A stretch of DNA of 64,000 bases, taken from an uncultured delta proteobacterium. Its GTDB lineage: Bacteria > Desulfobacterota > Binatia > UBA9968. This document shows positions 25,340 to 57,554 of this stretch, in pieces (within the stretch, counting starts at the first letter, position 1; every line of letters starts with the position of its first letter). The stretch is taken from assembly GCA_963755715.1 (NCBI GenBank), contig CAVWLW010000074.1, positions 1-64,000 of the forward strand, given 5' to 3'. Under the pieces are notes generated by a model. That model saw only the letters and a program-made list of their open reading frames with translations. It had not been told where the DNA came from and ran no database searches. The translations under genes were made by a program, and so were the position numbers.

Positions 25340-25412
25340 AAATAGTCTCGCGTTTCGAGTTTCGGGTTATTCGAAACTCTAAACCCGAGACCTGGGAGCT
25401 GGAATTCTTTCA

Positions 25413-26591
25413 ATGGACTTCGAGTTGACAGAAGAACACCGCATGGTTCAAGAGATGACGCGCAGTTTCGCCGAGCGCGAGATCAAACCCGTCGCCTCGC
25501 GCATGGATCACGACGGCATTTATCCGGCGGAGTTGGTGAAAGAGCTCGGCCGGATCGGGTTGATGGGCGTGTTTGCGCCGCAGGAGTACGGCGGCGCGGG
25601 ACTCGATTTTGTCTCCTACATTATCGCGTTGGAAGAAATCTCTAAAGTTTGGGCCTCCCTCGGCACCATCATGAGCGTGAACAATTCCTTGGTGTGCGGC
25701 CCGCTCCTGCGCTACGGCAGCGAAGCGCAGATCAAGCGATATCTGCCCTTAGTTGCCGGCGGAGAGTGGACCGGCTGTTACGCATTGACCGAACCAACGT
25801 CCGGTTCCGACGCCGGTTCCATCCAAACCCAGGCCAAGCGTGTGTCGGACGGTTATCTCCTCAACGGCGCCAAAGTTTTTACCACCAACGGCAGCTGCGC
25901 CGAGCTCGCGATCGTCTACGCAGTCACCGATCCGAACCGAGGGAAGCAAGGCATTTCGGCTTTTTTGGTCGAGCGGCGATCGCCGGGATTTATCGTCGGC
26001 AGGATTGAAGACAAGCTCGGTTTGCGCGCTTCGGAAACCGCCCAGCTGATCTTTGAAAATTGCCATATCAGCGAGGAAAATTTGCTGGGCCGAGAGGGCG
26101 AGGGATTCAACATCGCGCTCGAAACTCTTGATAGCGGCCGGATCGGGATTGCCGCTCAAGCGACCGGCATCGCCCAAGGCTGCCTCGATCAGGCGCTCGA
26201 CTATAGCCGCGAGCGCCGGCAGTTCGGTCAAGCGATCGCCAATTTTCAAGCGGTTCAGGCGATGCTTGCCGACATGGCGACGGAGATCGATTGCGCGCGG
26301 CTGCTCACCTATCGCGCCGCCTGGCTCCATCAACAGCGGAGAAAAGTGACGGCCGCAGCGGCCATGGCAAAATTGTTTGCGTCCGAAGCTTGCAATCGCG
26401 CCGCCTATAAAGCGGTGCAGATCCACGGCGGCTACGGTTACATTAAGGATTTTGCCGTCGAGCGTTTTTTTCGCGACGCGCGGGTTACGACGCTTTACGA
26501 AGGAACGTCGGAGATTCAGCGCCTGGTCATCGCGCGCCAACTGGTTCAGGAAGGAGCGGGTCCCGATGGATCTCGCCAAGAAAGTTTTTAA
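25413..26591 (+). CDS. Short/branched-chain acyl-CoA dehydrogenase
   Basis: ALTEP.SGSDA, K.FTTNG, KLGLRASET, R.QFG, GGYGY, YEGTSEIQ. Confidence 0.93.
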   Translation: MDFELTEEHRMVQEMTRSFAEREIKPVASRMDHDGIYPAELVKELGRIGLMGVFAPQEYGGAGLDFVSYIIALEEISKVWASLGTIMSVNNSLVCGPLLRYGSEAQIKRYLPLVAGGEWTGCYALTEPTSGSDAGSIQTQAKRVSDGYLLNGAKVFTTNGSCAELAIVYAVTDPNRGKQGISAFLVERRSPGFIVGRIEDKLGLRASETAQLIFENCHISEENLLGREGEGFNIALETLDSGRIGIAAQATGIAQGCLDQALDYSRERRQFGQAIANFQAVQAMLADMATEIDCARLLTYRAAWLHQQRRKVTAAAAMAKLFASEACNRAAYKAVQIHGGYGYIKDFAVERFFRDARVTTLYEGTSEIQRLVIARQLVQEGAGPDGSRQESF

Positions 26592-28161
26592 GAATCTGTC
26601 GGGCATCGAAATCCAAGAGATCTACACGCCCGATGATCTCAAGGACCTCGATTACGAGCGCGATTTAAATCGTCCGGGCGAGTTTCCCTTTACGCGCGGC
26701 GTCTATCCGACCATGTACCGCGGCAAACTTTGGACGATGCGCCAGTTCGCCGGATTTGCCGGCGCCAAAGAAACCAACCGGCGCTACCGTTATCTTCTCG
26801 ACCAAGGGACGACCGGTCTATCGGTCGCCTTCGATATGCCTACGCTCATGGGCTACGACTCCGATCATCCGCGCGCCAGAGGGGAAGTGGGCCGGTGCGG
26901 CGTCGCCATCGATTCGGTGGCCGACATGGAAACGCTCTTTCGCGACATTCCCTTGGATCGAGTCAGCGTATCGATGACCATCAACGGCCCGGCGATCGTG
27001 TTATTTGCGATGTATCTCGTCGTCGCCGAGCGGCAGGGCGTGCGCTTTAAGAAACTGCGCGGCACTTTGCAAAATGACATCTTGAAAGAATACATCGCGC
27101 AGAAGGAATGGATCTCGCCGCCGGCGCCGTCGCTCAAGCTGATCAATGACATCGTGAGCTTTTCACTGGAGTCGGCGCCGCTCTATCATCCGATCAGCAT
27201 CAGCGGCTACCATATCCGCGAGGCCGGATCGAGCGCGGTGCAGGAGCTCGCGTTCACGCTTTACGACGGACTGACTTACGTCCAATCCGCCATCGAGTCG
27301 GGGTTGCGCATGGACGACTTTGCGCCGCGCCTGTCTTTTTTCTTTAACGCGCACAACGATTTTTTCGAAGAGATCGCGAAATATCGCGCGGCCCGCCGGC
27401 TTTGGGCGCGGGAGATGAAAAATCGCTTCGCGGCCAAGGATCCGGCCGCGCTGGCGCTCCGGTTTCACGCCCAGACCGCTGGCTGCGCGCTCACCGCCCA
27501 ACAGCCCTATAACAATGTAGTTCGCGTCGCGCTCCAAGCACTAGCCGGGATTCTCGGCGGAGCGCAGTCGCTGCACACGAATTCCCTCGATGAGACCCTG
27601 GCCCTGCCGACCGAAGAGGCGGTGAAGCTCGCCTTGCGAACGCAACAGATCATCGCCCATGAATCGGGCGTGACCCATACGATCGATCCATTGGGCGGCG
27701 CCTATTACGTCGAGTGGTTGACCAACCGCCTTGAGAGCGAAGCGCTCGGCTATTTTACCAAACTCGATGAAATGGGCGGCATGATTCGGGCTATCGAGCT
27801 CGGTTATCCGCAAAGTGAAATCCAGCGTGAGGCGCTGTCGTATCAAAAAGAGATCGACTCAGGTGAGCGCTTTATCGTCGGCGTCAATGCGTTCACCGAG
27901 CCCGAGCGGGCACCGGTCAAAACTCTCAGGATCAGCCAGGGAGTGGAGCGCCGCCAGATTCAAGAGCTGCGGAACAGAAAAAGACAGCGCAGCGAAAGGC
28001 GGCTACGCTCCGCCTTGAACCGGCTCGAACGGGTCGCCGAGGAACAAGGCGATCTGATGGCGCCGGTCATGAATGCCGTTAGATCCGAGGCGACGGTGGG
28101 TGAGATCTGCGATGTGTTTAGAAAAGTCTACGGCGAATATCGCGAAACTGGAACGATTTGA
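26566..28161 (+). CDS. icmA: B12-dependent acyl-CoA mutase large subunit, isobutyryl-CoA mutase type
   Basis: WTMRQFAGF (F at MCM Y89) and QNDILKEYIAQKEW (Q at MCM R207); start MDLAKK after AAGGAG. Confidence 0.85.
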   Translation: MDLAKKVFKNLSGIEIQEIYTPDDLKDLDYERDLNRPGEFPFTRGVYPTMYRGKLWTMRQFAGFAGAKETNRRYRYLLDQGTTGLSVAFDMPTLMGYDSDHPRARGEVGRCGVAIDSVADMETLFRDIPLDRVSVSMTINGPAIVLFAMYLVVAERQGVRFKKLRGTLQNDILKEYIAQKEWISPPAPSLKLINDIVSFSLESAPLYHPISISGYHIREAGSSAVQELAFTLYDGLTYVQSAIESGLRMDDFAPRLSFFFNAHNDFFEEIAKYRAARRLWAREMKNRFAAKDPAALALRFHAQTAGCALTAQQPYNNVVRVALQALAGILGGAQSLHTNSLDETLALPTEEAVKLALRTQQIIAHESGVTHTIDPLGGAYYVEWLTNRLESEALGYFTKLDEMGGMIRAIELGYPQSEIQREALSYQKEIDSGERFIVGVNAFTEPERAPVKTLRISQGVERRQIQELRNRKRQRSERRLRSALNRLERVAEEQGDLMAPVMNAVRSEATVGEICDVFRKVYGEYRETGTI

Positions 28162-28172
28162 AAATTAGAATG

Positions 28173-28270
28173 TCGGAGTAAGGGAGTGATGAAGTCAAGG
28201 GTTGCGGAATTTGGAAGGTTGGGCTGGGCGGGCCGGCTCAGCACTCCGCTACTCCATTACTCCACTCCGA
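28173..28270. repeat. GGAGT/ACTCC-type imperfect palindromic repeat
   Basis: TCGGAGTAAGGGAGTGATG ... CACTCCGCTACTCCATTACTCCACTCCGA. Confidence 0.55.
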
Positions 28271-28282
28271 TAAATGATTCGC

Positions 28283-28726
28283 ATGAGATCCGCTAACCAT
28301 CACCTGCGTGTACTCCTCGGCAAAGTCGGTCTCGACGGCCACGATCGAGGCATAAAAATCGTCGCCCAGGCTCTCCGCGATGCCGGTGTCGAAGTGATTT
28401 ATCTCGGCATTCACAACAGCGCAGCGGAAATTGTCCGTTCGGCGGTTCAAGAAGACGTCGATGCCATCGGCATTTCGATTCATTCGGCGGCGCATCTTTC
28501 GCTTTTCAAAGACCTCGCCGAGGGACTGAAACACAACCGCGCCCGCGATATCGCCGTGTTTGCCGGGGGCATTGTCCCGGCCGAAGATTTTCCGAAGCTA
28601 AAAAAACTCGGCGTGAAAAAAATCTTTGGCCCGGGTGCTCCGCTCGGCGAGATCGTCGCGTTTGTAAAGACTTTTACAGGGCGGAGCCGCGCGAAGAATA
28701 CCGCGGCGAGGCGCCATGAACTTTGA
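28283..28726 (+). CDS. icmB: Acyl-CoA mutase small cobalamin-binding subunit
   Basis: GLDGHDRG (DxHxxG), FAGGIVP, IFGPG. Confidence 0.88.
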
Positions 28727-29879
28727 TCTGAGCGAGCAGCATAAGCTGCTTAAGCAAACCATGCGCGAGTTCGCCGAACGCGAGATTGCGCCGGGGGCGC
28801 GGGAGCGCGATGAATCGGCGCGGTTTCCCCACGAACTTGTGCCGAAGATGGCCGAGCTGGGCCTCTTCGGCGTCATGGTTCCCGAGACGTATGGCGGCGC
28901 GGGTCTCGATGCGCTGAGCTTCGCGATCGTTATCGAAGAAATTGCCCGTGTCGATGCCGCCGTGGCCCTGATGTTGGCTTCGCACAATTCGCTCTGTGCT
29001 GGGCATATCCTCGGCTTCGGCAGCGAAGAACAGAAGCGGACTTATTTAATTTCGCTTGCAAGCGGCAGGCAGTTGGGTGCCTGGGCGCTCACCGAACCTG
29101 AGGCCGGCTCGGGAGCGAAGTTTCTTAAAAGCCGCGCCGTGCCGCAGGGCGGGGGTTGGGTGCTTAATGGCGAGAAAATCTTTATCACGCAGGGATCAGT
29201 GGCTGGCATTTACGTCGTGATGGCCGCCACCGAGCCTGGGTGCGGCGCCGACGGCATCTCGGCCTTCATTGTCGAGCGCGGGAGCAGCGGCCTCGCCGTT
29301 GGGCGCGTGGAAAATAAGCTGGGGGTGCGCGCCTCCGACACCGCTCAGCTTCGCTTCGAGAACGTCCGTGTGCCTGCGGAAAATCTTTTGGGCGAGTTAA
29401 ACTCGGGTTACCGAGATGCGCTGGCGGTCCTCGACGGCGGGCGTATCGGCATCGGCGCGCTGGCCGTCGGCATCGCGCGCGCAGCTTTGGAGCAGTCGCT
29501 TCACTACGCCAAACAGCGGCGCCAGTCCGGCCAAGCGCTCGTGGAATTCGAAGCGATTCAATGGAAGCTCGCCGACATGGCGACGGAAATCGACGGCGCG
29601 CGGCTGTTGGTGTACCGCGCCGCGGAGCTCAAGCAAAAAGGCTTGCCGTTCAAACGGATGGCGTCGCAGGCCAAGCTCTTTTCATCCGAGGTCGCCGCGC
29701 GGGCGACGACTCAGGCGATCCAAATCCATGGTGGCGCCGGCTACATGAAGGATTTGCCGGTCGAGCGCTATTTCCGCGACGCCAAACTTTGCGAGATCGG
29801 CGAGGGCACTTCGGAGATTCAGCGGCTGATTATCGCCAAAGAGCTGTTACGGCAAAACGATGGCCAAGGCGCGGCTTAA
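28716..29879 (+). CDS. Acyl-CoA dehydrogenase
   Basis: [33 protein letters not shown]. Confidence 0.92.
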
Positions 29880-30825
29880 GAAAGCTCAAACGGCTCGGCT
29901 CGATATCAGCGACCTTTCCGCCGCGGTCTTGCGCGGCGATCACCGAGCGGCCGGCCGAGTGCTGACCTTGATCGACAATCAAGACCCGTTGGCCCGAGAA
30001 GTCCTCAAGCGTCTCTTTTTTCGCACCGGGCGCGCATGCGTCGTTGGCATCACCGGCGCCGCCGGATCGGGAAAGAGCACGCTCGTTAGCCGCATAGCCG
30101 AAGAGCTGCGCCGGCGAAAAAAGGAAGTTGGAATTCTGACCGTCGATCCGACCAGTCCGCTTAGCGGCGGCGCGCTTTTGGGCGACCGCATCCGCATGCG
30201 CGATCATTTTCTTGACGACGGCGTGTTTATCCGAAGCCTGGCGACAAGGGGAAGCTTGGGCGGCATTTCCAGCTCGGTTGTCGAGGCGGTGCAACTTCTC
30301 GATGCGCTGGGCAAAGAATACATATTGATCGAGACCATCGGCATCGGCCAGGACCAGATCGATATCGGTGGCGTCGCGCAAACCGTCCTGACGGTAATGA
30401 CCCCCGAGAGCGGCGACGAAGTGCAGGGGATCAAGGCGGGGGTGTTTGAGATTACCGATTTCTTGGTCATCAACAAAGCCGACCTGCCCGGCGCGCAAGA
30501 ACTGTTTCTCAAATTCAGCAGCGCCCCGCCCTTCGAGCACGTGCCGATCTTGAAAATTTCCGCGCTGCGCGGCGACGGCATCGCCGATCTCCTCGATCGA
30601 GTCGCCGTGCGTTGGGCCGACTTCGCGACCTCGACGAATCACAAGCAGAGACTGATGGAAATGTCGCGAAAGCAGCTGCTGGCGCTGCTTCGCGACGCGC
30701 TGATGGCCAGGGTGAGAAAAAAAATCAGCGAGGATCACATTGAAAACTGGATGAGGCGGATCGCCGAGCGGCGCCAGGATCCTTACAGCGCGGTGCAGGC
30801 GATTTTGGCGAAGATCGGCCTCTAA
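29860..30825 (+). CDS. meaB: Mutase-associated GTPase chaperone MeaB/ArgK
   Basis: [39 protein letters not shown]. Confidence 0.93.
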
Positions 30826-31014
30826 ATTCATCGCCGGTCTGGCGAAGACAGACGTTTTTTCGATCGGAACTCTTGTCGCACGAGGGGCGATTCTCTTCGC
30901 CTGTCGATAACGGATGAGAGAGATGCTCACTCCGCTGGATTCTTTCGAAGTGAATGGCGAGCGGGGCTTCTTGCCCATATTTCTTGCCTCCTTGCTGAGT
31001 CGCCGAAAACGTTT

Positions 31015-31488
31015 TTACTTCTTGACGGGCCGAAAACCCTCGATGTCGAGAATCGATCCGTGTCGTAACCGCTTGGGCTTGACGATGACTTCAACTCTGC
31101 TGCCGATTTTAACTTGCTCGGGCTCGGTGACATCGAGCAGATAATGGAGCAGCGCCGTGGTGGCACCGTCTAATTGTGCGAGCGCCAAAGCTCGGGGGCG
31201 CCGTAGCGGTCGGCGATCGCGGTCGACATGGCAGATGGTGAAACTCACGAGTCGGCCGGTGGGTTTGACTTCCACCCGTTCGGTGAGTGCCGCGAAACAT
31301 CGTTCGCAGTAGGAGCGCGCCGGCAGATAGACTTGCTTGCATGGCCGGCAACGAGTGGCAATGAGCTGGGCGCGGCGCTTGAGCGCTTCAAAAAAGATCT
31401 GGCCGCCGCTGCCCGCGGTATACAAAGACGTAAGCGGGATGGTGCCGGGCCATGCGATAGGATCTTTGCTCGGTGCCGATCGAGTCAT
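31015..31488 (-). CDS. DUF35 (Zn-ribbon + OB-fold) protein
   Basis: CRPC..VYLPARSYCERC then OB fold; ATGA overlap with the upstream DUF35 gene. Confidence 0.88.
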   Translation of the reverse strand: MTRSAPSKDPIAWPGTIPLTSLYTAGSGGQIFFEALKRRAQLIATRCRPCKQVYLPARSYCERCFAALTERVEVKPTGRLVSFTICHVDRDRRPLRRPRALALAQLDGATTALLHYLLDVTEPEQVKIGSRVEVIVKPKRLRHGSILDIEGFRPVKK

Positions 31489-32000
31489 CTCGGTTCCTCG
31501 GTTTGTTTCACGGGTTCCCAATAGGCGATGTCGGTCACGCTTCCGCGGCGCTTGGACGGCGCGCGCCATACCGCGCGCACCGCCATGCCGACTCGCACCT
31601 GCTTTGGCCGCACCTTTTTGATTAGATGGAGGATGCCCATGCCGGGCGAAGCGCCGTCGATTGCGATGACCGCGGGGATCTCGGGTTGCTTCAAGCGACG
31701 CACGTCCCAGGAGACATAGCAGAGAGAAAAGGTGAGGATCCTGCCGGTATCGTTTACGTAAACCCAATCGTCGGTCGGGCGAAAGCAGCGCTCGCAAAAC
31801 ATGCGCGGCGGAATCATGACCCGTTGGCAGCCATCGCAGCGCCGGGCGATCAGCCGGCCCTGCTTGAGTTCTTCGAGATAGCGACCGATGGCTTCGCCGC
31901 TGTCCCAACGATAGCTCAGCTTCGGTTCATACGAAGTTGTGAAAATCTTGCCGCGCGATTTTTGTTTGTCGAGCGGGGTGCCAGCAAATTTCTGGATCAT
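31485..32000 (-). CDS. DUF35 (Zn-ribbon + OB-fold) protein
   Basis: CDGC.RVMIPPRMFCERC, G.ILTFS, GMAVRAVW, GSVTDIAYW. Confidence 0.88.
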   Translation of the reverse strand: MIQKFAGTPLDKQKSRGKIFTTSYEPKLSYRWDSGEAIGRYLEELKQGRLIARRCDGCQRVMIPPRMFCERCFRPTDDWVYVNDTGRILTFSLCYVSWDVRRLKQPEIPAVIAIDGASPGMGILHLIKKVRPKQVRVGMAVRAVWRAPSKRRGSVTDIAYWEPVKQTEEPR

Positions 32001-32010
32001 AAATATATTT

Positions 32011-33186
32011 TTACTCCGGTTTCTTCGTCCCCATAACAACGACCGTGCCGACTTGCATCAGATCGCCCCAAGCTTGAGCGACGCCGCGCTCGGGCTTGCC
32101 GGGCACTTGGCGTTTTGCCGCCTCACCGCGGAGCTGCCAATAGAGCTCACAGATTTTCATCATGCCCGCGGCCGCGATCGGATTGCCGACGCCGAGCAGC
32201 CCTCCCGAGGGCGTCACGGGCAAATCGCCGTTGCGTTCGAACACGCCGTCGGCGAGCAGTTTCGGCGCCTGTCCTTTGGGCGCGAGCTGCAAACCTTCGA
32301 GGTGATGGAGCTCTTTGTAAGCAAAGGGATCGTAGGGCTCGGCGATATTGATTTCCTTGCGCGGCTCTTTGACGCCGGCCATCCGGTAAGCCATCCAGGC
32401 AGCTTTCTCCACGTATTCGGGATAGGCCAGATCGCGATTGGTCCAGTAGGCGCTATCCAAACACCAACCGACGCCTTGAATCCAAATCGGCTTATCGGTG
32501 ACGCGGCGAGCCACTTCTTCCGCAGCGATGACAATGGCCGCGGCGCCGTCGCTGGTCGGGCTCACCATCAGTCGATGGACCGGCCAAGCCATGATCTCCG
32601 AAGCTAAAACGTCTTTCACCGTGAGCTTTGCGCCGAGCTGAGCAGCCGGATGATTCAGGGCGTTCCTTTTGTTTTTCACCGAGACCCGGGCGATCTCTTC
32701 GACGGTGATGCCGTAGGTTTCCATGTAGCGGTTCTGTTCCAGAGCAAAGATCCAGAGCAGATTCGGTTTTAGCGGTTGTTCGGTGATGGGATCGAAAATC
32801 GTCAGAAACGCCGCCTGGGGATGGGGCTGGCAAGTCGACATCTTTTCTTCGCAGACCACCAGCGCGGTGTCGAACATTCCCGAGGCGACTTGGAACCAGG
32901 CTTGAGCGACGGCGTACACGCCGGTGCCGCCGCCGACGTAGCAGCGCAGAAAGGGTTTGCGCCATGCGCCACAGCCGTCGGCGAGATACTCGCTTTTCAT
33001 GTGCACGCCGTCGAAAGCATCGGGCGCGCTGCCGAGAACCACGCAGTCAATCTGCTTAAGCTTTAGCTCGCTTGCAGCCAGCGCGGAGCGGGCCGCCAGC
33101 CAGGCAAGCTCTTTCGGCGTTTCGAGCGCGCGGTGCATGAATTTTGTCATACCCGCGCCGATGACGGCGACTTTGCGCTTAGCCAC
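32011..33186 (-). CDS. SCP-x-type thiolase-fold protein, Ltp3-like, lacking nucleophilic Cys
   Basis: VLGSAPDAFDGV, YVGGGTG at the CxSG site, EPYDPF, GGLLGVGNP. Confidence 0.85.
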   Translation of the reverse strand: MAKRKVAVIGAGMTKFMHRALETPKELAWLAARSALAASELKLKQIDCVVLGSAPDAFDGVHMKSEYLADGCGAWRKPFLRCYVGGGTGVYAVAQAWFQVASGMFDTALVVCEEKMSTCQPHPQAAFLTIFDPITEQPLKPNLLWIFALEQNRYMETYGITVEEIARVSVKNKRNALNHPAAQLGAKLTVKDVLASEIMAWPVHRLMVSPTSDGAAAIVIAAEEVARRVTDKPIWIQGVGWCLDSAYWTNRDLAYPEYVEKAAWMAYRMAGVKEPRKEINIAEPYDPFAYKELHHLEGLQLAPKGQAPKLLADGVFERNGDLPVTPSGGLLGVGNPIAAAGMMKICELYWQLRGEAAKRQVPGKPERGVAQAWGDLMQVGTVVVMGTKKPE

Positions 33187-34342
33187 GGGGAGGCTCCACG
33201 CCGAGGATGACCACCGCGCCGCTGGTGGTCGGAACGCCGCGCCATGACTGCGCCAGGCCGATTTTCGCGCGCGACAACTGGCGCTCGCCGGCCTTGCCGC
33301 GCAGCTGAAGCACTAATTCGACCACGCGATAAAGCCCGCTCGCTTCCAGCGCCAGACCCATCCCCAACGCGCCGCCGGAGACGTTCGCCGGCATTTTTCC
33401 ATCCTGGCGGGTTTCACCCGCCTCGATGGCGCGGCCGGCTTGGGCCGGTTTGTCGTATAGACCGAGCGCGATCAGATGTTGCAGCTCCTTATAGGCATAG
33501 GTGTCGTCGACTTCAAAAAAATCGACCTCATGGGGGGACTTAATACCCGCTTGACGGTAAGCCGCTCGAGCTGAGAGTCGGGCGTACTCGGCATTGCTCC
33601 AATCGCGCGATTCCAAAGTCGGACTGTCGGTCGCAAAGCCGCTGCCCAAAATCCACAAGGGTTGGCTGGGCGCTTTGCGCGCTTTCGCTTCGTTTGCGAC
33701 GACGACCACGACGCAGCCGTCCGCGCTCTTGGCCAGCTCGGCTTCACGCAGCGGATAGGCGAGATAAGGCGATGATTCGACTTGCGCCAGATCGGTATCG
33801 AGCGGGTACGCGGACAACGGATTACAACGCGCGTTGCGCTGGTTTTTGACGACGACTTGAGCGCACTGGGAGCCGGTGATGCCGCTTCGACTCAAAAAGC
33901 GGTTCATTTCCAGCCCGGCTATGGCGTGGGGTGTAAGGCCCAGCGGCCGGTTGTAGACCGGATCCAAAGCATAGTCGAGAATCCAGTCCGGCGTTTGGAC
34001 GTTGGAAGCTTTGCTGTGGGCCTCGACGGCGACGATCTCGGCAATTCCGGAGCGAATCTGCATCAGCGCATCTGCGATACCGTGAAGCCCGTCCTGAGTG
34101 AGGGTGTGCATCGGCTTTTGCACCGCGCCGAGCTGATCGGGGGTGTATTCATCGAAAATCGATATACCTTCATTGAGATCTTCCGCGCAGGTGACGAAGG
34201 AATCGATCTCGTCGAAGCGAACGGAGGCATCGGCGTAGGCCTTTTGCGCCGTCTCAAACACGAGCTCCTTGAACGAGCACGCGGGGGTCGCCGGTTCAAG
34301 CGGGCTGAAGCCAATGCCGATGATTGCAATGCGCTCTGCCAT
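33179..34342 (-). CDS. SCP-x-type thiolase-fold protein, Ltp4-like, no canonical catalytic residues
   Basis: EDLNEGISIFDE..PDQLGAV, TQDGLHG, EVDDTY, GGALGMG; overlaps the next gene. Confidence 0.85.
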   Translation of the reverse strand: MAERIAIIGIGFSPLEPATPACSFKELVFETAQKAYADASVRFDEIDSFVTCAEDLNEGISIFDEYTPDQLGAVQKPMHTLTQDGLHGIADALMQIRSGIAEIVAVEAHSKASNVQTPDWILDYALDPVYNRPLGLTPHAIAGLEMNRFLSRSGITGSQCAQVVVKNQRNARCNPLSAYPLDTDLAQVESSPYLAYPLREAELAKSADGCVVVVVANEAKARKAPSQPLWILGSGFATDSPTLESRDWSNAEYARLSARAAYRQAGIKSPHEVDFFEVDDTYAYKELQHLIALGLYDKPAQAGRAIEAGETRQDGKMPANVSGGALGMGLALEASGLYRVVELVLQLRGKAGERQLSRAKIGLAQSWRGVPTTSGAVVILGVEPPRG

Positions 34343-34441
34343 GGGGTCCGCACCGCCTAGATTACAGCATGGAGCCTCCGATTATTTCGGAATCGCGACA
34401 CGCCGCCATATTGGTTCTCCTCGCAGCACGATAGGCTCGGG

Positions 34442-35980
34442 TCAAGCTGCGTGGGGCGCCGTCAATGTTCTTCGTTCTCGCTCGCGCTCCCGGAGCTCGC
34501 GCTTGAGTATCTTCCCCGCGGGATTGCGCGGCAGGCTGTCGATGAACTCGACGAATCGCGGCGCTTTATAATCGGCGATGCGCGCCCTGGCATAATCGAT
34601 GATCTCCGGTTCGTGAGCGGCGGCGCTCTGTTTCAAGACGACGAAAGCTTTCACCGCTTCGCCCGAGTCTGGATCTTCGATGCCGACAACTGCCGCTTCG
34701 CTCACGCTCGGGTGCTGGAGCAAAACTTCCTCGACCTCGCGCGGCCACACCTTGAAGCCCGAGACATTGATCATGTCCTTGGCACGGTCCACCAGATAGA
34801 AATAGCCGTCGGCGTCGGCCCTGCCGATGTCCCCGGTCAAAAACCAGCCGTCGCGGATGACTTGGGCGGTTTCTTTGGGCCGGCGGAAATAGCCCAGCAT
34901 CACGTTGGGACCCTTGATTGCGATCTCTCCGGTCTCGCCCGCCGGCAGCGCGCGTCCTTCGGGGTCGACGATTTTCATCTCGACTTTTTCTAGGGGCGTG
35001 CCGACGCTCCCTTCGCGGTACAGGGAATCGTGGTTGTAGCTGGCGAAAGGCGAAGTCTCGGTCAGGCCGTAGCCTTCGTAGATGATCTGCCCGATTCTTC
35101 GTTGCCATTGGCGCGCCACGACCACCGGCATGGGCGCGGCGGCGGTGAAGCAGTAGCGGACCGTGCGGAAATATTCCTCGATATTGGGCTCGGCGAGCAG
35201 ATGCTGATAAACCGGCGGGACGCCGAAAAACATGCTGACGCGATGGCTTTTGACGGACTCAAGAATTTCTTCGGCTTGGAAACGCTCGTGGAGCACGAGC
35301 GTTGCGCCGGCATCGAGGGCGGCGTTCATGATAAAATTTTGACCGAAGCAGTGAAAAAGCGGCAGATAGCAAATCAGTCGATCGTCCGATGCCATTTGCG
35401 TGTGATGCCGGGTGGCCTGGATATTGGAGATGATATTGCCGTGGGAGAGCAACGCGCCCTTCGGTTTTCCCGTGGTTCCCGACGTGTAAAGAATTGCTGC
35501 GCCGTCATTGTTCGCTAAATCTGCGGCCGAGGTTTCGCCCGATGCCAGCGCGAGAAAGTCCTCGAGCGGAAATACATCGGCGCGCTGCGGCTTGTCGACG
35601 CACAGGATCTTCTTGAGCGAGGGAACTTCCCTGGCGTCGGGAACTTGCTCGATGAGCTTGTTTGCGGTGATCAGGACCGATGATTCGGAATCGTTGAGAA
35701 TAAACTTAACTTCGTCGTGCTTGAGCATGACGTTCAATGAAACCGCGATGGCGCCCAGGCGCACGACGGCGTAATAGGCCGTGATGAATTCCGGCCAGTT
35801 TGGTAAAAAGAGCGCGACTCGATCGCCGCGCTTGAGGTGGGCCACTTGTTCGAGCGCTGAGCTCAGGCGGCAAGCTCGCTGGTAAAGCTCACCGTAGGCG
35901 ATGCTCTCGCCTGCAAACAAAATCGCCTGCTTCTTGGGAAAAAGACCGTTGCCGTATTCCAACACATCGAAGATGTTCAT
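34442..35980 (-). CDS. AMP-forming acyl/aryl-CoA ligase
   Basis: YTSGTTGKPKG, LPLFH, YGLTETSP, TGDIG, DRAKD, GKILK; ATGA overlap with the MIO enzyme. Confidence 0.93.
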   Translation of the reverse strand: MNIFDVLEYGNGLFPKKQAILFAGESIAYGELYQRACRLSSALEQVAHLKRGDRVALFLPNWPEFITAYYAVVRLGAIAVSLNVMLKHDEVKFILNDSESSVLITANKLIEQVPDAREVPSLKKILCVDKPQRADVFPLEDFLALASGETSAADLANNDGAAILYTSGTTGKPKGALLSHGNIISNIQATRHHTQMASDDRLICYLPLFHCFGQNFIMNAALDAGATLVLHERFQAEEILESVKSHRVSMFFGVPPVYQHLLAEPNIEEYFRTVRYCFTAAAPMPVVVARQWQRRIGQIIYEGYGLTETSPFASYNHDSLYREGSVGTPLEKVEMKIVDPEGRALPAGETGEIAIKGPNVMLGYFRRPKETAQVIRDGWFLTGDIGRADADGYFYLVDRAKDMINVSGFKVWPREVEEVLLQHPSVSEAAVVGIEDPDSGEAVKAFVVLKQSAAAHEPEIIDYARARIADYKAPRFVEFIDSLPRNPAGKILKRELRERERERRTLTAPHAA

Positions 35981-37578
35981 GGTCCGGCCCTCCAGTCGGG
36001 AAGAGGAATGAGCCTTTTTTGGATCAGCTCGCCGACTTTGGCGATGTCTCGATCCAACGGCCTATCCTCGTCTAAAAACGTCACTTCGCTTCTCACCGTG
36101 GCATAAATGGCCTGATTGCCTTTGCCGAGATAGTTGGCCGCGCGCCGCAAGTCGATGGCCTGGCAGAGCGCGATGAGCACCATCGCCACGGCCTCTCGCG
36201 CCAGGGCGGTCATGTCCATGGCGGTCAACGCCGAGTGCGTGCCCAAGCTCACCATATCTTGGTTGTACTGCTCGGTGGGCAGGGTATGGATCATGCTCGG
36301 CTGAGCGAGCTGGCGAAGGGCGCAGACCAGACTCGTCAGGCACAGCTGCACGCCTTTGAAGCCGGTGGAAACTCCGGGATTGGGCGACAGATTGGACGGC
36401 AGCCCGTTGCTGAAGCGCTCGTCGACGAGCATCGCCATGATGGCATGAAGCCAGTTGGCCAAGGTGGCGAGATCGATTTTCCAGCCATCGAGCGCGCGCG
36501 CCACGTGACCGCCGTAGAAATTACCCGTGTGGTAGATCTCGCCCCGAACGGGATCGACCAACGGGTTGTCATTGACGGAGTTGGCCTCGCGCTCGAGGGT
36601 CCTTCGATATTCCTCCAGAGCGTCGAGAAGCGGGCCGAGACCTTGCGGCGCGCAGCGCAGCGAGTAGGGCGACTGAATGCATTCCTCGGCGCGGACCACG
36701 CCTTGACGCTTCGCCTCTCTGGTATCGCTCAGCTGAGCGCGGAGGAGGTCGAGGTTGCGAACATTGCCGCTGGTGCTGAGAAGCTCGCGGCAAAAAGCTG
36801 CCGCGGTGATCTGGCCCGGATGGTTTTTTGCCCGGTGAATGGCGTCTTTGAACGGGTCGTCAGTGGCGCCAAGCGCTTCCAATGCCAAGCTTACACACGC
36901 CAAGACTGAAGCGGTAAGATAAGCGCCGTCGTCAATCACCAGCGAGCCAATCCCATTCATCACGGTGGTGCCGTTGACCAGGGCGAGCGCCTCCTTGGCT
37001 TCGAGCCGAAGCGGTTCCATGCGGGCGTCGGCCAGAGTTCGATCTGCGGGCCGGACCGTTCCTTGATAATAAACCTCTCCTTGACCCAAGAGCGCTCGGG
37101 CGATGTAGGCCGACGGAATCAGATCGCCGCTCGCTCCCACCGAGCCGTAGCGCGGCACCACAGGCGTGATGCGCTTATTGAGGAGGTCGAGAAGTTTTTC
37201 GATGATCACCAGGCGCACACCGGAGAATCCTTTGGCCAGCGCGTTGGCTCTGAGCAACATCGCCGCGCGTACGGTGTCTTCCGGCAAAGCCGTGCCCACC
37301 CCGCAGGCGAGGAACTGGAACATATTTTCTTGATGCTTGGAGATTTCCGAAGACGGGATGAGATAGCGCGCGTTGCCGCCGAAGCCGGTATTGACGCCGT
37401 AAATGATCTCTCCGGCCGCTAGTTTTTTCTCTAACAGCCGCCGCGACGCAGAAATTTTTTCCCGTACGTTGAGATGGGATACGAGTTCAACACGCTTACT
37501 GAGACGGGCGACCGAAGCGACCTTCGCGATCGTCAGGCCATCTCCGGAGATTTCCACGAGAGAGGGATTCATTTCCAT
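35977..37578 (-). CDS. MIO-dependent aromatic amino acid ammonia-lyase/aminomutase, phenylalanine type (PAL/PAM)
   Basis: YGVNTGFGG, ASG in GSVGASGDL, FL at the specificity site (HAL has SH), NQD (HAL has QED). Confidence 0.88.
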   Translation of the reverse strand: MEMNPSLVEISGDGLTIAKVASVARLSKRVELVSHLNVREKISASRRLLEKKLAAGEIIYGVNTGFGGNARYLIPSSEISKHQENMFQFLACGVGTALPEDTVRAAMLLRANALAKGFSGVRLVIIEKLLDLLNKRITPVVPRYGSVGASGDLIPSAYIARALLGQGEVYYQGTVRPADRTLADARMEPLRLEAKEALALVNGTTVMNGIGSLVIDDGAYLTASVLACVSLALEALGATDDPFKDAIHRAKNHPGQITAAAFCRELLSTSGNVRNLDLLRAQLSDTREAKRQGVVRAEECIQSPYSLRCAPQGLGPLLDALEEYRRTLEREANSVNDNPLVDPVRGEIYHTGNFYGGHVARALDGWKIDLATLANWLHAIMAMLVDERFSNGLPSNLSPNPGVSTGFKGVQLCLTSLVCALRQLAQPSMIHTLPTEQYNQDMVSLGTHSALTAMDMTALAREAVAMVLIALCQAIDLRRAANYLGKGNQAIYATVRSEVTFLDEDRPLDRDIAKVGELIQKRLIPLPDWRAGP

Positions 37579-37601
37579 GAGACCCCCCAGCTGCAAGTCT
37601 A

Positions 37602-37610
37602 ATTATAGCA
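37602..37610 (-). promoter_or_regulatory. Extended -10 promoter upstream of the PAL-type gene
   Basis: TGCTATAAT on the minus strand about 24 nt before the ATG. Confidence 0.5.
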
Positions 37611-37688
37611 TCCACCAGGGGGCATGAAACAAGGACCATTGCCACGAGCTGGAAAGAACGGAGAGAAGGGTGGGAAAGGCGCCGAAGA

Positions 37689-39104
37689 TTATAAGGGGCG
37701 CCGCGCAAGCGCGTGAGTCGCCGTGCCGTAAAACGATTCCGCGGCTTCCATCAGGGTCTCCGATAGCGTCGGATGGGGATGCACCGAATCGGCGATGTCA
37801 CGCGCAGTGGCGCCCATTTCCACGGCGAGTACGCCTTCGCTGATCAGTTCGCCGGCGCCGACGCCGACGATGCCGACGCCGAGGATGCGCTCGCTCTCCG
37901 GTTCGATAATGAGTTTGGTCAAGCCGTCGGGCCGATCCAAAGTGAGCGCGCGGCCGGAAGCGCCCCAGAGAAATTTGGCGATCTTAACCTCGATGTTTTT
38001 TTGCTTGGCTTCGGTTTCGGTGAGACCGCACCAGGCGACTTCCGGATCGGTAAAAACCACTGCGGGGATCACTACGTTTTCGAATGCGCTCGCTTCACCG
38101 AGCATCGCTTCCACGGCGATCTTTGCCTCTTTGAATGCGCGGTGGGCGAGGAGGGTGCCGCCGTTGACGTCACCGACCGCGTAAATGTTCGGGTCTTCGG
38201 TTTGCTGCTGGGCGTTGCATTGAATGAAACCTTTGTCATCTTTGGTGACTTTGGTGTTTTCCAGTCCAAGATCGGCCAGATTGGGCACGCGCCCGACGCT
38301 CACGAGGACGCGGTCGTAAAGTTCCTCGCGCTGCTCTTTGTTGATCTCCGTGATGACTTTGATCTGCTTGCCGGCGGTGGCCATCTTGAGCACTTTGGTG
38401 TTCAGGCGGATCTCCTTGAAGGCCTTTTGCGCTACGCGACTGACCGGACGCACCAAATCGGGATCGACACCGGTAAGAATCGAAGGCAATGCTTCGAGGA
38501 CGACGACGCGACTGCCGAGAGCGGCATAGACGGTGCCGAGCTCCATGCCGATGTAACCGCCGCCGACCACCAATAGGTCTTGCGGGACATCGGGCAGCTC
38601 GAGCGCCTCCGTGGAGGTCATGATGCGTTTGTTGCCGAGGTCGAAGGCGTTGGGCATGGCCGGCTTGGAGCCCACCGCGATGATGGCTTTTTCGTAACGG
38701 ATAAATTTCTGGCCTGCGTCGGTCTCGACCCGCAGAGTTTGCGAATCTTCGAAGTGGCCGCGGCCGTGCACGACTTCGACGTTGCGATGCTGCGCCAGAG
38801 TTTTAATTCCCTGGCCGAGTTTTTCGACGATCGATTCTTTCCACGCGCGCAGCTTGTCCAGATTAAGATTGAGCGCGCCAAATTCGATGCCGCGTTTGGA
38901 CGACTCCTTCGACTCGCGCATGACCGCAGTAGCATGCAGCAATGCCTTGGACGGAATGCAGCCGACGTTCATACACACGCCGCCGAGCCGGGGATTTTGT
39001 TCGACGAGAGTTACTTTTTTACCCTTGTCAGCGGCGTAAAACGCGGCGGTGTAACCGCCGGGGCCGGCGCCGAGAACGAGGATTTCAGTGCTGGTCGGTT
39101 CCAT
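37689..39104 (-). CDS. lpdA: Dihydrolipoamide dehydrogenase E3
   Basis: GAGPGGY, GGVCMNVGCIPSK, GGGYIG, HPHPTLSE. Confidence 0.95.
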   Translation of the reverse strand: MEPTSTEILVLGAGPGGYTAAFYAADKGKKVTLVEQNPRLGGVCMNVGCIPSKALLHATAVMRESKESSKRGIEFGALNLNLDKLRAWKESIVEKLGQGIKTLAQHRNVEVVHGRGHFEDSQTLRVETDAGQKFIRYEKAIIAVGSKPAMPNAFDLGNKRIMTSTEALELPDVPQDLLVVGGGYIGMELGTVYAALGSRVVVLEALPSILTGVDPDLVRPVSRVAQKAFKEIRLNTKVLKMATAGKQIKVITEINKEQREELYDRVLVSVGRVPNLADLGLENTKVTKDDKGFIQCNAQQQTEDPNIYAVGDVNGGTLLAHRAFKEAKIAVEAMLGEASAFENVVIPAVVFTDPEVAWCGLTETEAKQKNIEVKIAKFLWGASGRALTLDRPDGLTKLIIEPESERILGVGIVGVGAGELISEGVLAVEMGATARDIADSVHPHPTLSETLMEAAESFYGTATHALARRPL

Positions 39105-39115
39105 AGATTAAGGTT

Positions 39116-40432
39116 TTACTTGAGCTTCAAGTCGGCTTCATCGAATGCTTCGAGTCCAGCGATAACGTCCTTTAAAAAGCGCACGGCGTCGGCGCCGTCG
39201 AGAACGCGGTGATCGTAGGCGAGGCAGAGCGGCACGATCGTTCTGATGGCGATCTTTCCATCGATCGCGACCGGTTTGGCCTGCCCTTGCCCGACGCCCA
39301 AGATCGCGACCTGGGGCGCGTAGATGATCGGCGTAAAGTGGCTGCCGCCGATGCTGCCCTGGTTCGAAATCGTAAACGTGCCGCCTTGCAGCTCCTCGAG
39401 GGAAATCTTGCGTTGGCGGGTCTTCTCCGTGAGCGCGTGCAGCTCCTGCGAAAGCTCAAAAAGATTTTTCCGATCGACGTCGCGCAACGTCGGCACGATC
39501 AGCCCGCCTTCGGTATCCACCGCGACGCCGATGTGGCAGTAGTCTTTGTAAACGATCTCGTGGGCTGCTTCATCCATGCTGGCGTTTGTGCGCGGATGCT
39601 TTTTCAAAGCGCGGCCAAGCACCAGCAGCAAAAACGACGTGAACGTGAGATGGGCGCCCTTTTGCTCATATGCGGCTGCATGCTTTTTGCGCAGCGCCAG
39701 CAGCGCGGTAATGTCGGCGTCGGCGAATTGATTTATTTTCGGGATCGTTGTCCACGATTCCACCATCCGGCGGCTGACCGTGCGCCGGAGCGGCGACATT
39801 TTTTCCCGGCGTATCGGCCCCCATTTGGCAAAATCGATGGCTTCGCTCGGTGCCGGAGTCGGACCGCTGGCGGAAGCGGCGGGCTGCGCGCTTGACGGGG
39901 CGCTGTGAAATGCGATCTGCTGCAAGCGCTGAACATAAGCGCGCAGATCGCCGAGATTGATTCTGCCGCCGGCCTCGCTGCCTTTGATTCTCGTTAGATC
40001 GATGCCGAGATCGCGCGCGATCTTGCGCACCGACGGCGGCGCGGGTGGCGGCGCGCCGCTTTTCGACTCGTAATGGTAGTTTTCCACGGCCGCGGCAGTG
40101 GTTGCCGGCTGCGTTTGCGGCGGCGTGGTCGGCCTCGTCGGTGGCGCTTCAGTAGTGGCCGGCGCCTGCGGCGGCTTCGCGCTCGCAGCGCTTGCGGTGC
40201 CGCTCGATTCAATGGCGATCAAGGCTTGGCCGACCGCGACTTCCATGCCTTGCTTCACGTAAATTTTCGTCACAATGCCCGAGCTTGGCGCAGGGATCGA
40301 ACCCACCGCTTTTTGGGTTTCGAGCTCCATGATGGCCTGATCTTTTTTGACTTCCTGGCCTTCGGCGACCAGGATGCTTACGACCGTGCCGGACTCTACA
40401 CCTTCAGCGAGCTGGGGAAGTTTCACGTCCAT
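39116..40432 (-). CDS. aceF: Pyruvate dehydrogenase E2
   Basis: Lipoyl ETQKA, Ala/Pro linkers, DHRVLDG; follows aceE. Confidence 0.9.
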   Translation of the reverse strand: MDVKLPQLAEGVESGTVVSILVAEGQEVKKDQAIMELETQKAVGSIPAPSSGIVTKIYVKQGMEVAVGQALIAIESSGTASAASAKPPQAPATTEAPPTRPTTPPQTQPATTAAAVENYHYESKSGAPPPAPPSVRKIARDLGIDLTRIKGSEAGGRINLGDLRAYVQRLQQIAFHSAPSSAQPAASASGPTPAPSEAIDFAKWGPIRREKMSPLRRTVSRRMVESWTTIPKINQFADADITALLALRKKHAAAYEQKGAHLTFTSFLLLVLGRALKKHPRTNASMDEAAHEIVYKDYCHIGVAVDTEGGLIVPTLRDVDRKNLFELSQELHALTEKTRQRKISLEELQGGTFTISNQGSIGGSHFTPIIYAPQVAILGVGQGQAKPVAIDGKIAIRTIVPLCLAYDHRVLDGADAVRFLKDVIAGLEAFDEADLKLK

Positions 40433-40465
40433 GAAAAATTTTTGCGAATGCGTTTTTGAGAGTGA

Positions 40466-57027: not shown

Positions 57028-57507
57028 ATGAGCAAGATTTTTATTGTCCAGCCGCACAAAATGCTGCGCCACGCGTTTGCCATCGCTTTATCGCCGGATC
57101 ATGAGGTTGAGATTTCCAAAACCATGCCGGCGTCGGCGGATCTGCAAGGGAGCGATCTTGCGATCGTCGATGCCGCGTCGCTGCGCGAGCGCAGCTCATT
57201 GACGGCGCCGGAGCTTCATACGATTCAAAGCTGGAAGATTCCGATTATTTGGATTGACGACGACGTGGAAATCCAAGCGCCGACGCGGGATAAGTTGCTC
57301 CGTTTGAAAGCGCCGATCGATAAGGAGACGCTCAAAAAAACGGTGACGCAATGCTTGGGGCAATCAGATGCGAACCAACCGGCTCCCAAGACGAAAAGCC
57401 GCGCGCCAGCTGCTCTATCGAATGTCAAGCCGCCCGAGACGAAATCATCCCAGTCCGCGGTCGACGCGGAGAAGAAGTTTATCGAGTTAGTGGACATCGT
57501 CGAATAG
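57028..57507 (+). CDS. Hypothetical protein, possibly a degenerate receiver-like domain
   Basis: KIFIV..H.ML, DLAIVD, IPIIWI, LKAPID pattern. Confidence 0.6.
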   Translation: MSKIFIVQPHKMLRHAFAIALSPDHEVEISKTMPASADLQGSDLAIVDAASLRERSSLTAPELHTIQSWKIPIIWIDDDVEIQAPTRDKLLRLKAPIDKETLKKTVTQCLGQSDANQPAPKTKSRAPAALSNVKPPETKSSQSAVDAEKKFIELVDIVE

Positions 57508-57554
57508 CGGTCGGTTCAGACTGGAGCGGAAGAACAACAATCTACAATCCACCT

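Follow-up and report, generated by a model that had tools for sequence, protein, structure and literature searches.

Thiolase-fold aldolases with DUF35 partners are already known. Those described so far come from steroid and bile-acid side-chain degradation, and they are homodimers tied to a MaoC hydratase. In one report (PMC12329534), the steroid aldolase Ltp2 uses Tyr294 of its YDHF motif as the base and Tyr344 as the acid, and the bile-acid aldolase CtSal uses the catalytic Tyr302 (base) and Cys304 of a YDCY motif; CtSal has Gly at the thiolase nucleophile site and Gln352 at the position of Tyr344, and its variants C304A, C304S and C304H are inactive. Here we describe a six-gene locus from an uncultured delta proteobacterium, in which two further thiolase-fold proteins stand beside two DUF35 proteins, a phenylalanine ammonia-lyase (PAL)-type lyase and an acyl-coenzyme A (acyl-CoA) ligase. 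The locus lies in a stretch of 64,000 nucleotides (contig CAVWLW010000074.1; hereafter the window).

Bacterial pairs of a phenylalanine lyase and a CoA ligase form the second point of reference. EncP/EncH of the enterocin pathway and StlA/StlB of the Photorhabdus stilbene pathway reportedly join a phenylalanine lyase with the 4-methylideneimidazol-5-one (MIO) cofactor to an ANL ligase, giving cinnamoyl-CoA. These pairs feed beta-oxidative (EncI/EncJ) or polyketide routes. The third is hydroxycinnamoyl-CoA hydratase-lyase (HCHL/Ech) of the crotonase superfamily, which removes acetyl-CoA from a cinnamoyl-CoA in a CoA-dependent, non-oxidative manner to give a benzaldehyde.

The six genes of the locus run in the same direction, in the order PAL-type MIO lyase, ligase, THL_A, THL_B, DUF35_1 and DUF35_2, where THL_A and THL_B are the thiolase-fold proteins (Table 1). 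A first reading of the window, made from the sequence alone (the sequence-only reading), had named these families and had reported overlaps at the lyase/ligase, thiolase/thiolase and DUF35/DUF35 junctions. The domain matches agree with all six assignments, and the gene calls agree with the junction sequences, which we read from the DNA as ATGA (overlap of 4 nt), GTGGCTAA (8 nt) and ATGA (4 nt), respectively; THL_B and DUF35_1 are separated by 10 nt. A 297-aa open reading frame (ORF) that the ORF tool gave for DUF35_2 is an over-extension, the true start being the ATG at 31488.

The best explanation of the region is one operon with two evolutionary layers: a four-gene module, THL_A-THL_B-DUF35_1-DUF35_2, and a PAL-ligase pair. 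The module is a horizontally mobile, self-contained unit. Judged by its sequences, it would most likely carry out aldol-type C-C cleavage or formation on a 3-hydroxyacyl-CoA, with release of acetyl-CoA or propionyl-CoA and a carbonyl compound. For the lineage of the window, coupling of the PAL-ligase pair to the module is our leading hypothesis, the general substrate of the module being another or a broader one. In this coupled route, the lyase would convert phenylalanine or a substituted analogue to cinnamate and ammonia, the ligase would activate cinnamate to cinnamoyl-CoA, an enoyl-CoA hydratase encoded elsewhere would hydrate it to 3-hydroxy-3-phenylpropanoyl-CoA, and the module would split this by retro-aldol cleavage into benzaldehyde and acetyl-CoA. 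We put the complete route forward tentatively, as a real possibility that still falls short of probable.

Spread of the module and its link to the PAL-ligase pair

THL_B peptides, searched against one genome per species, found 45 loci. THL_A lies directly upstream of THL_B in 38 of the 40 loci that can be evaluated (about 1.4 kb further off in the other two), and two DUF35 genes follow THL_B in 32 of 34; this arrangement is far beyond chance. The metagenome-assembled genomes that carry the module are labelled Binatia, Deltaproteobacteria, Acidobacteria/Terriglobia, Xenobia, Dehalococcoidia, Anaerolineae, Planctomycetes, Elusimicrobia, Bacteroidetes and Halobacteriales, and the identity of THL_B across these loci, spanning phylum labels, is 59-96%. 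Within the family of the window, the module is accessory: 15 of the 41 genomes sampled have THL_B, and so do 6 of the 18 that are of high quality. Considering the high identity across phylum labels together with this patchy occurrence, horizontal spread under strong constraint is indicated. Pfam annotation of the flanks, which covered 126 ORFs around 11 distant and 31 around 10 closer loci, returned mostly unrelated neighbours, including ribosomal proteins, kinases, cell-wall enzymes, thiamine synthesis and regulators, which argues that the module carries a function of its own.

The PAL-ligase pair is found upstream of the module in 10 of the 45 loci of this THL_B-conditioned sample; in an eleventh, L008, the contig begins within an orthologue of the ligase, 1 nt from THL_A. 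On a tree of concatenated THL_A and THL_B (39 rows, quick IQ-TREE), all PAL-bearing rows fall into one 16-row clade (SH-aLRT 93), in which 11 rows have the pair, four lack it and one could not be scored. Presence of the pair needs at least five state changes on this tree, and one gain followed by at least four losses is the most parsimonious history; most likely, the pair was acquired once, in one soil family labelled Binatia or Deltaproteobacteria.

Searching from the side of the lyase gives the same picture inside the family. A PAL-conditioned search returned 27 metagenome contigs, with the ligase directly behind PAL in 23 of 24 evaluable contigs and THL_A behind the ligase in 15 of 17, counts that are not independent because some of the contigs probably duplicate genome loci and all loci are kin. 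Among the 41 genomes of the family sample (PAL orthologues at a threshold of at least 57% identity), 11 have both a PAL orthologue and THL_B, 3 have the PAL orthologue only, 4 have THL_B only (one of them the L008 case) and 23 have neither; in the three with PAL only, the contig runs PAL-ligase-THL_A and then ends. The pair adjoins the module, or THL_A at a contig end, in 12 of the 14 PAL-bearing family genomes, the other two being fragmented, and a PAL orthologue away from the module is seen in none of the 12 with visible context. Two of the genomes counted, G499 and G503, are unpublished, and leaving them out gives adjacency in 10 of 12. The synteny of PAL and ligase with the module, which the sequence-only reading had offered as a check, thus holds inside the family. 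Outside it (family f1), PAL searches of the phylum (300 genomes and our own) and of the class (200 and our own, including the unpublished G478, which has a HAL-like match only) found only matches like histidine ammonia-lyase (HAL), at no more than 41% identity.

The spacing of the genes bears on whether the pair and the module are transcribed together. Of 28 loci, 17 have between -4 and 14 nt from the ligase stop to the THL_A start; the others have 45-249 nt, and the sub-lineage of the window has 98-99 nt. Gaps of 14 nt or less are too short for an independent promoter, thus a shared ligase-module transcript is indicated. The six-gene block is also kept under at least two upstream contexts (pyruvate dehydrogenase genes or others). 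An internal promoter before the thiolase pair had been suspected in the window, and this suggestion found no backing: a consensus promoter and terminator scan of 30800-37800 gave no sigma-70-like or terminator-like match in 34343-34441 or in the gap between E3 and PAL, the scan being weak evidence either way. At a word share of at least 0.86, 14 DNA runs from soil or rhizosphere contain the stretch, and contigs of four soil RNA libraries, each from another study, cover all six genes at 90-100% identity. An RNA-library contig (X15 record 3, 34334-34825) reaches from the 3' end of the ligase gene across the complete spacer to 9 nt of THL_A and so hints weakly at read-through between the two genes; the RNA evidence is weak because the contigs give no strand or expression level and DNA carry-over is possible. 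Two further RNA contigs from two studies, X16 (34192-34342) and X18 (34136-34340), stop at the THL_A start codon; these ends, and the parts of the stretch that RNA contigs leave uncovered, could mark a transcript end (at THL_A, a 5' end) or a strain-variable spacer that breaks assemblies, and are at most a hint.

The module does without the PAL-ligase pair, while the pair, two contigs excepted, is found only directly before the module and tightly packed; this is the pattern of a feeder branch added onto an existing catabolic core. The same data can be read as adjacency without coupling. In that case, the module would act on an aliphatic short or branched 3-hydroxyacyl-CoA and be tied to mutase, acyl-CoA dehydrogenase and hydratase neighbours, and the pair would be an accessory cassette in a permissive slot; cinnamoyl-CoA would go, for example, through ordinary beta-oxidation to benzoyl-CoA, or PAL would serve mainly for ammonia release.

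Several observations weigh against the coupled route, and some of them also favour this alternative. First, the module occurs without the pair in every locus outside the one clade (labels Chloroflexi, Planctomycetes, Bacteroidetes, Elusimicrobia, Halobacteriales and Acidobacteria), and also in 4 of the 15 scored clade members (L016, L024, L028 and L032), whose genomes, of completeness not given, yielded no PAL orthologue elsewhere with this query. Since the module can stand without either gene of the pair, its basic function is not specific to phenylalanine. Such absence in related genomes had been named beforehand as the outcome that would count against a joint pathway; it is seen outside the clade and in these four members, and not in the rest. 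The earlier proposal of a single six-gene pathway therefore stands for its genes, for the Cys-less thiolases and for the PAL-ligase linkage in the family, and falls for the unity of the pathway, as the module is separable. Second, all PAL-bearing loci form one clade, so that they may have inherited the adjacency from one event and, as kin, do not count as independent observations. Third, the slot before THL_A changes. In contig L102, which is otherwise 98.4% identical to the window, 2689 bp (34416-37104) are cleanly deleted; PAL beyond residue 164 and the entire ligase are lost, and the first 164 codons of PAL end up joined to the last 73 nt of the spacer before THL_A. This contig is either a natural loss of the pair in progress or an assembly chimera, and because most of PAL and all of the ligase are gone, it suggests that the pair is dispensable and that the substrate of the module is another or a broader one. 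In L024, a gene for a 5'-3' exonuclease takes the place of the pair between E3 and THL_A, and in two metagenome contigs the pair runs into a hydantoinase B gene (L097) or an amidohydrolase gene (L105).

Fourth, a B12 acyl-CoA mutase and an enoyl-CoA hydratase (ECH) recur as neighbours of the module outside the family, which points to short or branched acyl-CoAs of the aliphatic kind. The Acidobacteria-labelled loci carry the split B12 acyl-CoA mutase, its B12 subunit, ECH and the module one after the other, closely spaced and all in the same direction; in one Planctomycetales locus, the gene just before the module encodes an enoyl-CoA hydratase; and in the clade of the window, a mutase cluster lies downstream of the module in convergent orientation. 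The mutases of the window and of the Acidobacteria-labelled loci share a Phe in RQ-F-AGF and a Gln at the position of Arg207 of methylmalonyl-CoA mutase, which we take to be the signature of isobutyryl-CoA mutase. Because of this signature, and because the best solved relative is 2-hydroxyisobutyryl-CoA mutase (560 bits), the enzyme is probably of the isobutyryl-CoA type rather than a methylmalonyl-CoA mutase; the same Phe/Gln type thus stands beside the module in two sister clades, in different orientations. Fifth, as the sequence-only reading had observed, the operon and the window hold no enoyl-CoA hydratase, and all 25 ECH_1 matches of the genome are off the contig of the window. No match to the benzoyl-CoA oxygenase BoxB reaches the cut-off in the genome, the best (201 bits against 499) probably being a related di-iron oxygenase; three ring-hydroxylating oxygenase alpha matches do reach their cut-off, and neither result decides the fate of benzaldehyde or benzoyl-CoA.

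What speaks against uncoupled adjacency is the packing and the company of the pair: the short or overlapping ligase-THL_A junctions, the persistence of the six-gene block while its upstream context changes, and the complete lack, in family genomes with visible context, of a PAL orthologue standing away from the module. We thus place adjacency without coupling on the unlikely side, as a serious competitor all the same, and keep the coupled route, with PAL and ligase as a feeder branch, as the hypothesis for this lineage.

Active sites and partners of the two thiolase-fold proteins

The chemistry proposed for the module depends on THL_A and THL_B, whose active-site positions were read by alignment to 7yvy, a thiolase of Pyrococcus. 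THL_B has Gly in place of the nucleophilic Cys, Tyr (YDPF) for the His of HDxF and Asn (GNP) for the His of GHP; in THL_A, the corresponding residues are Gln, Asp and Leu. No Cys occurs at the three thiolase catalytic positions in 40-45 related sequences. Neither protein qualifies as a thiolase (acetyl-CoA C-acyltransferase), and with no Cys nucleophile both are incapable of thiolysis, in agreement with the earlier description of the pair as Cys-less. The altered site of THL_B is under tight conservation: the motif E-P-Y-D-P-F-x-Y-K is invariant (45/45 sequences), and V-G-G (residues 84-86, across the nucleophile site) and G-V-G-N-P are each present in 43/43.

The Tyr of YDPF, Y285, aligns with the thiolase HDxF His, the position given for Ltp2 Tyr294, and so has the place of the Ltp2-type Tyr base; THL_A has Asp there. 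Because the Cys nucleophile is missing, an invariant Tyr occupies the base position of Ltp2 and Sal, and Gly occupies the nucleophile site, aldol chemistry of the module is suggested, and the likeness to thiolase-fold aldolases noted in the sequence-only reading holds at both residues. The second catalytic residue of the known aldolases appears to be absent, which counts against the proposed cleavage: Pro287 (45/45) sits where Sal needs its catalytic Cys304, and Asn335, invariant in 43/43, falls at the position of Ltp2 Tyr344 by spacing (Y+50), not by alignment. Since Tyr and Gly are kept, the amide residue is by spacing like that of CtSal, and Pro stands where Sal needs Cys, the site reads as a third variant of the aldolase-like active site, Y-D-P-F with Asn. 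The retro-aldol cleavage to benzaldehyde and acetyl-CoA that had been proposed earlier thus keeps its Tyr/Gly basis, while its hydration step is unaccounted for and the cleavage and its products stay presumptive.

The relatives of THL_B do not place it among the described aldolases. It is a member of NCBIfam PRK06065 (NF004721; 647 bits against a cut-off of 455), and the closest model for THL_A, PRK06066 (NF004722), is matched below its cut-off (422 against 516); neither family has a name more specific than "thiolase domain-containing protein". Among 14 control genomes, one has a match above the PRK06065 cut-off. The best solved sequence relatives of THL_B are DUF35-associated archaeal thiolases, at 136 and 130 bits, ahead of Sal (79) and Ltp2 (78). 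A Foldseek search with an AlphaFold2 model (pLDDT 71.7, pTM 0.81) ranked in the same way, with the archaeal enzymes at TM 0.80-0.85, Sal at rank 40 and Ltp2 at rank 44. THL_B is thus a member of neither the Ltp2 nor the Sal aldolase clade, and its greater nearness to true archaeal thiolases in sequence and fold is a further point against aldolase function. The model supports the fold only and no pocket geometry, because its loops 117-137, 197-211 and 324-336 have pLDDT below 50 and the active-site loops are thereby of low confidence. A query of the ESM Atlas with THL_B returned nothing beyond generic thiolase clusters.

The representative proteins P0129 and P0131-P0146, at 36-44% identity to THL_B, form a large, Cys-less thiolase-like radiation with Y-x-(P/A)-F and x-N-P motifs, P0129 being the exception in Cys. 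This protein (44% identity) has YDPF and GNP and keeps Cys at the nucleophile position. The Tyr motif is thus not exclusive to aldolases, and the Tyr-bearing thiolase fold is much broader than the characterised aldolases.

An alternative is that the module is not a retro-aldolase and instead serves another CoA-ester reaction, such as decarboxylation, isomerisation, hydration or a synthetic aldol-type condensation, or that one or both subunits are non-catalytic scaffolds. It is favoured by the apparent absence of the acid residue of both known aldolase types, by P0129, by the low-confidence loops of the model, and by THL_A, which has a conserved set of its own at pocket-equivalent positions (H79, T80, D84, E107, H109, S110, K111, D279 and D280, each in 37-40 of 40-41 sequences). 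TbSLP, a relative with the Tyr motif, shows only very slow malonyl-CoA decarboxylation, as quoted in PMC12329534. On the other side, the invariant Tyr and the Gly at the nucleophile position are the same as in CtSal, a DUF35 partner is common to both characterised aldolases, and the strong purifying selection on THL_B speaks against a mere scaffold. We therefore consider it unlikely that the module lacks retro-aldolase function, and the aldol reading of the module is retained.

The two DUF35 proteins fit this reading. Both pass the Pfam cut-offs for zf-ChsH2 (PF12172) and OB_ChsH2_C (PF01796) and are thus DUF35 proteins, and the CxxC...CxxC zinc-ribbon motif is seen in the translations of DUF35_1, where it is intact, and DUF35_2. 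Their best solved relatives are 3irb, ChsH2(DUF35) 6ok1_B and the DUF35 chain 9myr_B of the Sal-Shy entry for DUF35_1, and 3irb, 6ok1_B, PhlB and 6esq_E for DUF35_2; both are thus nearest to solved DUF35 partners of thiolase-fold enzymes. Unlike the MaoC-linked partners of Ltp2 and Sal, they are free-standing, and neither the operon nor the window holds a MaoC or ECH hydratase. The metagenome protein P0123 (731 aa) joins THL_B (59% identity), DUF35_1 (44%) and DUF35_2 (34%) in one chain with the gene order kept, which supports physical association of the three; its second zinc ribbon is degenerate, and either the fusion is genuine or the gene was called across frameshifts. Presumably, THL_A and THL_B are each capped by a DUF35 protein of their own, in a complex that we infer from these relationships.

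A bolder form of the hypothesis makes the module an obligate hetero-complex C-C lyase, with enoyl-CoA hydration in one site and retro-aldol cleavage in the other. THL_A would provide a His/Asp/Glu pocket and THL_B the Tyr285 pocket, and the complex would be the thiolase-fold counterpart of HCHL. If true, this would explain why most loci have no hydratase and how PAL and ligase alone suffice to feed phenylalanine, and such a self-sufficient complex would have spread horizontally through soil Acidobacteria, Binatia-like bacteria, Chloroflexi, Planctomycetes and haloarchaea. We hold it to be improbable.

The lyase, the ligase and the surroundings of the operon

The window lyase matches PF00221 (Lyase_aromatic) with 525 bits over model positions 1-465 of 466 and has the Ala-Ser-Gly triad of the MIO cofactor, which makes it a member of the MIO lyase/aminomutase family. 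Of the 30 orthologue rows that cover this part of the alignment, 29 read GASGDL, as the window does. The exception is L097 (904-2484), in which Ala-Asn-Gly replaces the triad (GANGDL) and no module stands behind the PAL-ligase pair. At the selectivity switch, the window lyase has F-L (MFQFLACGVG), aligned to the F-L of Anabaena PAL; in the 30 orthologue rows the switch is F-L in 18, F-M in 1, C-L in 5, A-L in 2, S-L in 2 and Y-M in 2, and neither His nor S-H occurs in any of them. We take Phe-Leu to be the mark of a PAL, as in F137/L138 of PcPAL, and H-L that of tyrosine lyases, as in H89/L90 of RsTAL. Considering that the switch is F-L and never has His in the orthologues, the substrate is likely phenylalanine or a ring-substituted analogue, and the earlier call of a PAL-type lyase is upheld.

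The enzyme might instead act on histidine or tyrosine, or be a phenylalanine 2,3-aminomutase with the ligase activating its beta-amino acid product; this is the least likely of the readings weighed here. In its favour, the highest NCBIfam scores of the lyase are those against HAL models (434 and 416 bits), the aminomutase AdmH is the closest solved relative (293 bits; Anabaena PAL 276, HAL 260) and the switch residue varies among the orthologues (Phe in 19, Cys in 5, and Ala, Ser and Tyr in 2 each), a variation that also weighs against the coupled route. On the other side, the lyase stays under every curated NCBIfam cut-off, HutH included (TIGR01225, 416 bits against 539), its F-L differs from the S-H of HAL, the H-L of tyrosine lyases and the A-V of AdmH, and the 93.6%-complete genome, in which it is the sole PF00221 gene, yielded no urocanase. 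A PAL-family gene downstream of the module in Acidobacteria-labelled loci was considered as a second association and rejected, as it is a true HutH (698 bits against 539; S-H).

The ligase has the domains of an ANL acyl-CoA ligase (AMP-binding, 329 bits; AMP-binding_C, 81 bits). The only NCBIfam model that it passes, with 494 bits where 476 are required, is NF004837, which stands for a generic "long-chain-fatty-acid-CoA ligase" subfamily. Its best solved relatives are feruloyl-CoA synthetase (8wev, 316 bits), malonyl-CoA synthetase (290) and 4-coumarate-CoA ligase (279), two of the three being a lead towards the cinnamate activation proposed earlier. Conversion of phenylalanine through cinnamate to cinnamoyl-CoA by the lyase and the ligase is thus plausible.

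The surroundings of the operon are listed in Table 1. The pyruvate-dehydrogenase-type genes upstream of PAL are kept in part of the family. In two PAL-bearing loci, a gene of the indoleamine 2,3-dioxygenase family lies just downstream of the module (L006:13230-14402 and L039:12918-14135); L032 has a bicupin and an amidohydrolase gene upstream of the module, and L016 has a gene of the fumarylacetoacetate-hydrolase family. These neighbours lend a loose flavour of aromatic catabolism to the clade of the window.

Table 1. Features of the window, with the six-gene locus first
Feature	Position	Strand	Description
Six-gene locus	31015-37596	-	lyase to DUF35_2
PAL-like lyase	35977-37596	-	539 aa from TTG 37596; alternative ATG 37578 gives 533 aa; PF00221
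AMP-forming acyl-CoA ligase	34442-35980	-	512 aa; PF00501 and PF13193
Ligase/THL_A spacer	34343-34441	-	99 nt
THL_A, thiolase-fold protein without catalytic Cys/His/His	33179-34342	-	387 aa; Thiolase_C_1
THL_B, thiolase-fold protein with aldolase-like Tyr motif	32011-33186	-	391 aa; GTG start; Thiolase_N and Thiolase_C_1
DUF35_1, Zn-ribbon and OB-fold protein	31485-32000	-	171 aa from ATG 32000; PF12172 and PF01796
DUF35_2, Zn-ribbon and OB-fold protein	31015-31488	-	157 aa from ATG 31488; PF12172 and PF01796
Pyruvate-dehydrogenase-type E1, E2 and E3 genes	37689-43186	-	upstream of PAL, co-oriented; Pfam
Thiolase, acyl-CoA dehydrogenase, split B12 acyl-CoA mutase (large and B12 subunits), acyl-CoA dehydrogenase, MeaB	24161-30825	+	downstream, convergent; Pfam, NCBIfam
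Mutase cluster within it	26377-30825	+	counterpart L012:5976-8801
MeaB	29860-30825	+	
Valyl-tRNA synthetase	57351-60309	+	split into overlapping ORFs 57351-59426 and 58900-60309 in different frames; frameshift real or assembly-made
O-methyltransferase	13918-14908	-	split into overlapping ORFs: dimerisation domain 14444-14908, catalytic domain 13918-14631
Schlafen AlbA_2 and HATPase_c_4 protein	15091-16599	-	between a peptidase gene and unrelated genes

Comparison with described systems

A search of full-text literature, with most subscription journals beyond its reach, found no description of the module or of the combination of PAL, ligase and module. The closest solved relatives of THL_B are the archaeal DUF35-associated thiolases, that is 7yvy and the Methanothermococcus enzyme (6esq/6et9). 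The Methanothermococcus complex of thiolase, HMG-CoA synthase and DUF35 is like the module in bringing two thiolase-superfamily enzymes together with DUF35; however, the archaeal thiolases keep Cys and His, whereas THL_A and THL_B lack all three catalytic residues. Ketothiolase/DUF35 pairs of archaeal fatty acid synthesis (10.1101/2024.07.05.601840) were considered as a match and set aside, as that source describes active thiolases and not a Cys-less pair.

Ltp2 with ChsH2(DUF35) (PDB 6ok1) resembles the THL_B module in lacking a nucleophilic Cys, in having Tyr first in Y-D-x-F and in having a DUF35 partner. It cleaves a 3-hydroxyacyl-CoA without thiolysis, and the same chemistry is proposed for the module. 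It differs in architecture, being a homodimer with a DUF35 that forms the tail end of a MaoC hydratase subunit, whereas the module has two thiolase folds and two free DUF35 proteins; in distance from THL_B, by bit score and structural rank; in having the acid Tyr344 where THL_B has, by spacing, Asn335; and in setting, as no steroid genes lie near the module. CtSal with CtShy(DUF35) (PDB 9myr) shares with THL_B the Gly at the nucleophile position, the Tyr in Y-D-x-(F/Y) and the DUF35 partner, and its Gln352 corresponds by spacing to Asn335, an amide residue at the position of the second His in both. Unlike THL_B, it depends on Cys304 of YDCY in place of Pro287, and it too is distant by score and rank. 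Shy of that system carries a hydratase, and the module has no linked hydratase.

Other thiolase-fold systems act on aryl-substituted CoA esters. In the ibuprofen route, propionyl-CoA is described as the product of an "ipfDE-encoded thiolase" in PMC9195938. IpfD/IpfE and BbsAB (7pxp) are like the module in combining a thiolase fold with DUF35 on such substrates, with one of each and not two; among solved relatives, the benzoylsuccinyl-CoA thiolase BbsB scores 126 bits to THL_B, and its NCBIfam model gives 138 against a cut-off of 750. Unlike EncP/EncH and StlA/StlB, the PAL-ligase pair of the window is linked downstream only to Cys-less thiolase folds, with no polyketide synthase or hydratase nearby. 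HCHL is a functional analogue of the proposed cleavage; its fold is unrelated, one enzyme both hydrates and cleaves, and we claim no membership.

The new elements here are the two different thiolase-fold subunits, the two free DUF35 proteins, the YDPF/Asn site, the wide phyletic range and the PAL-ligase feeder in one family. The module offers a testable function for PRK06065 and PRK06066, two NCBI families without one. If the PAL-ligase link is functional, it would open a non-oxidative, CoA-dependent route from phenylalanine to benzaldehyde and acetyl-CoA without a hydratase-lyase of the crotonase type; such a route would bear on the turnover of aromatic carbon and nitrogen in soil and on biocatalysis, namely aldol C-C bond formation on CoA esters. 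Compared with the steroid and bile-acid aldolases, the module would extend their chemistry to a four-gene heteromer, to a third variant of the catalytic motif and to a wider range of hosts, including abundant uncultured soil lineages.

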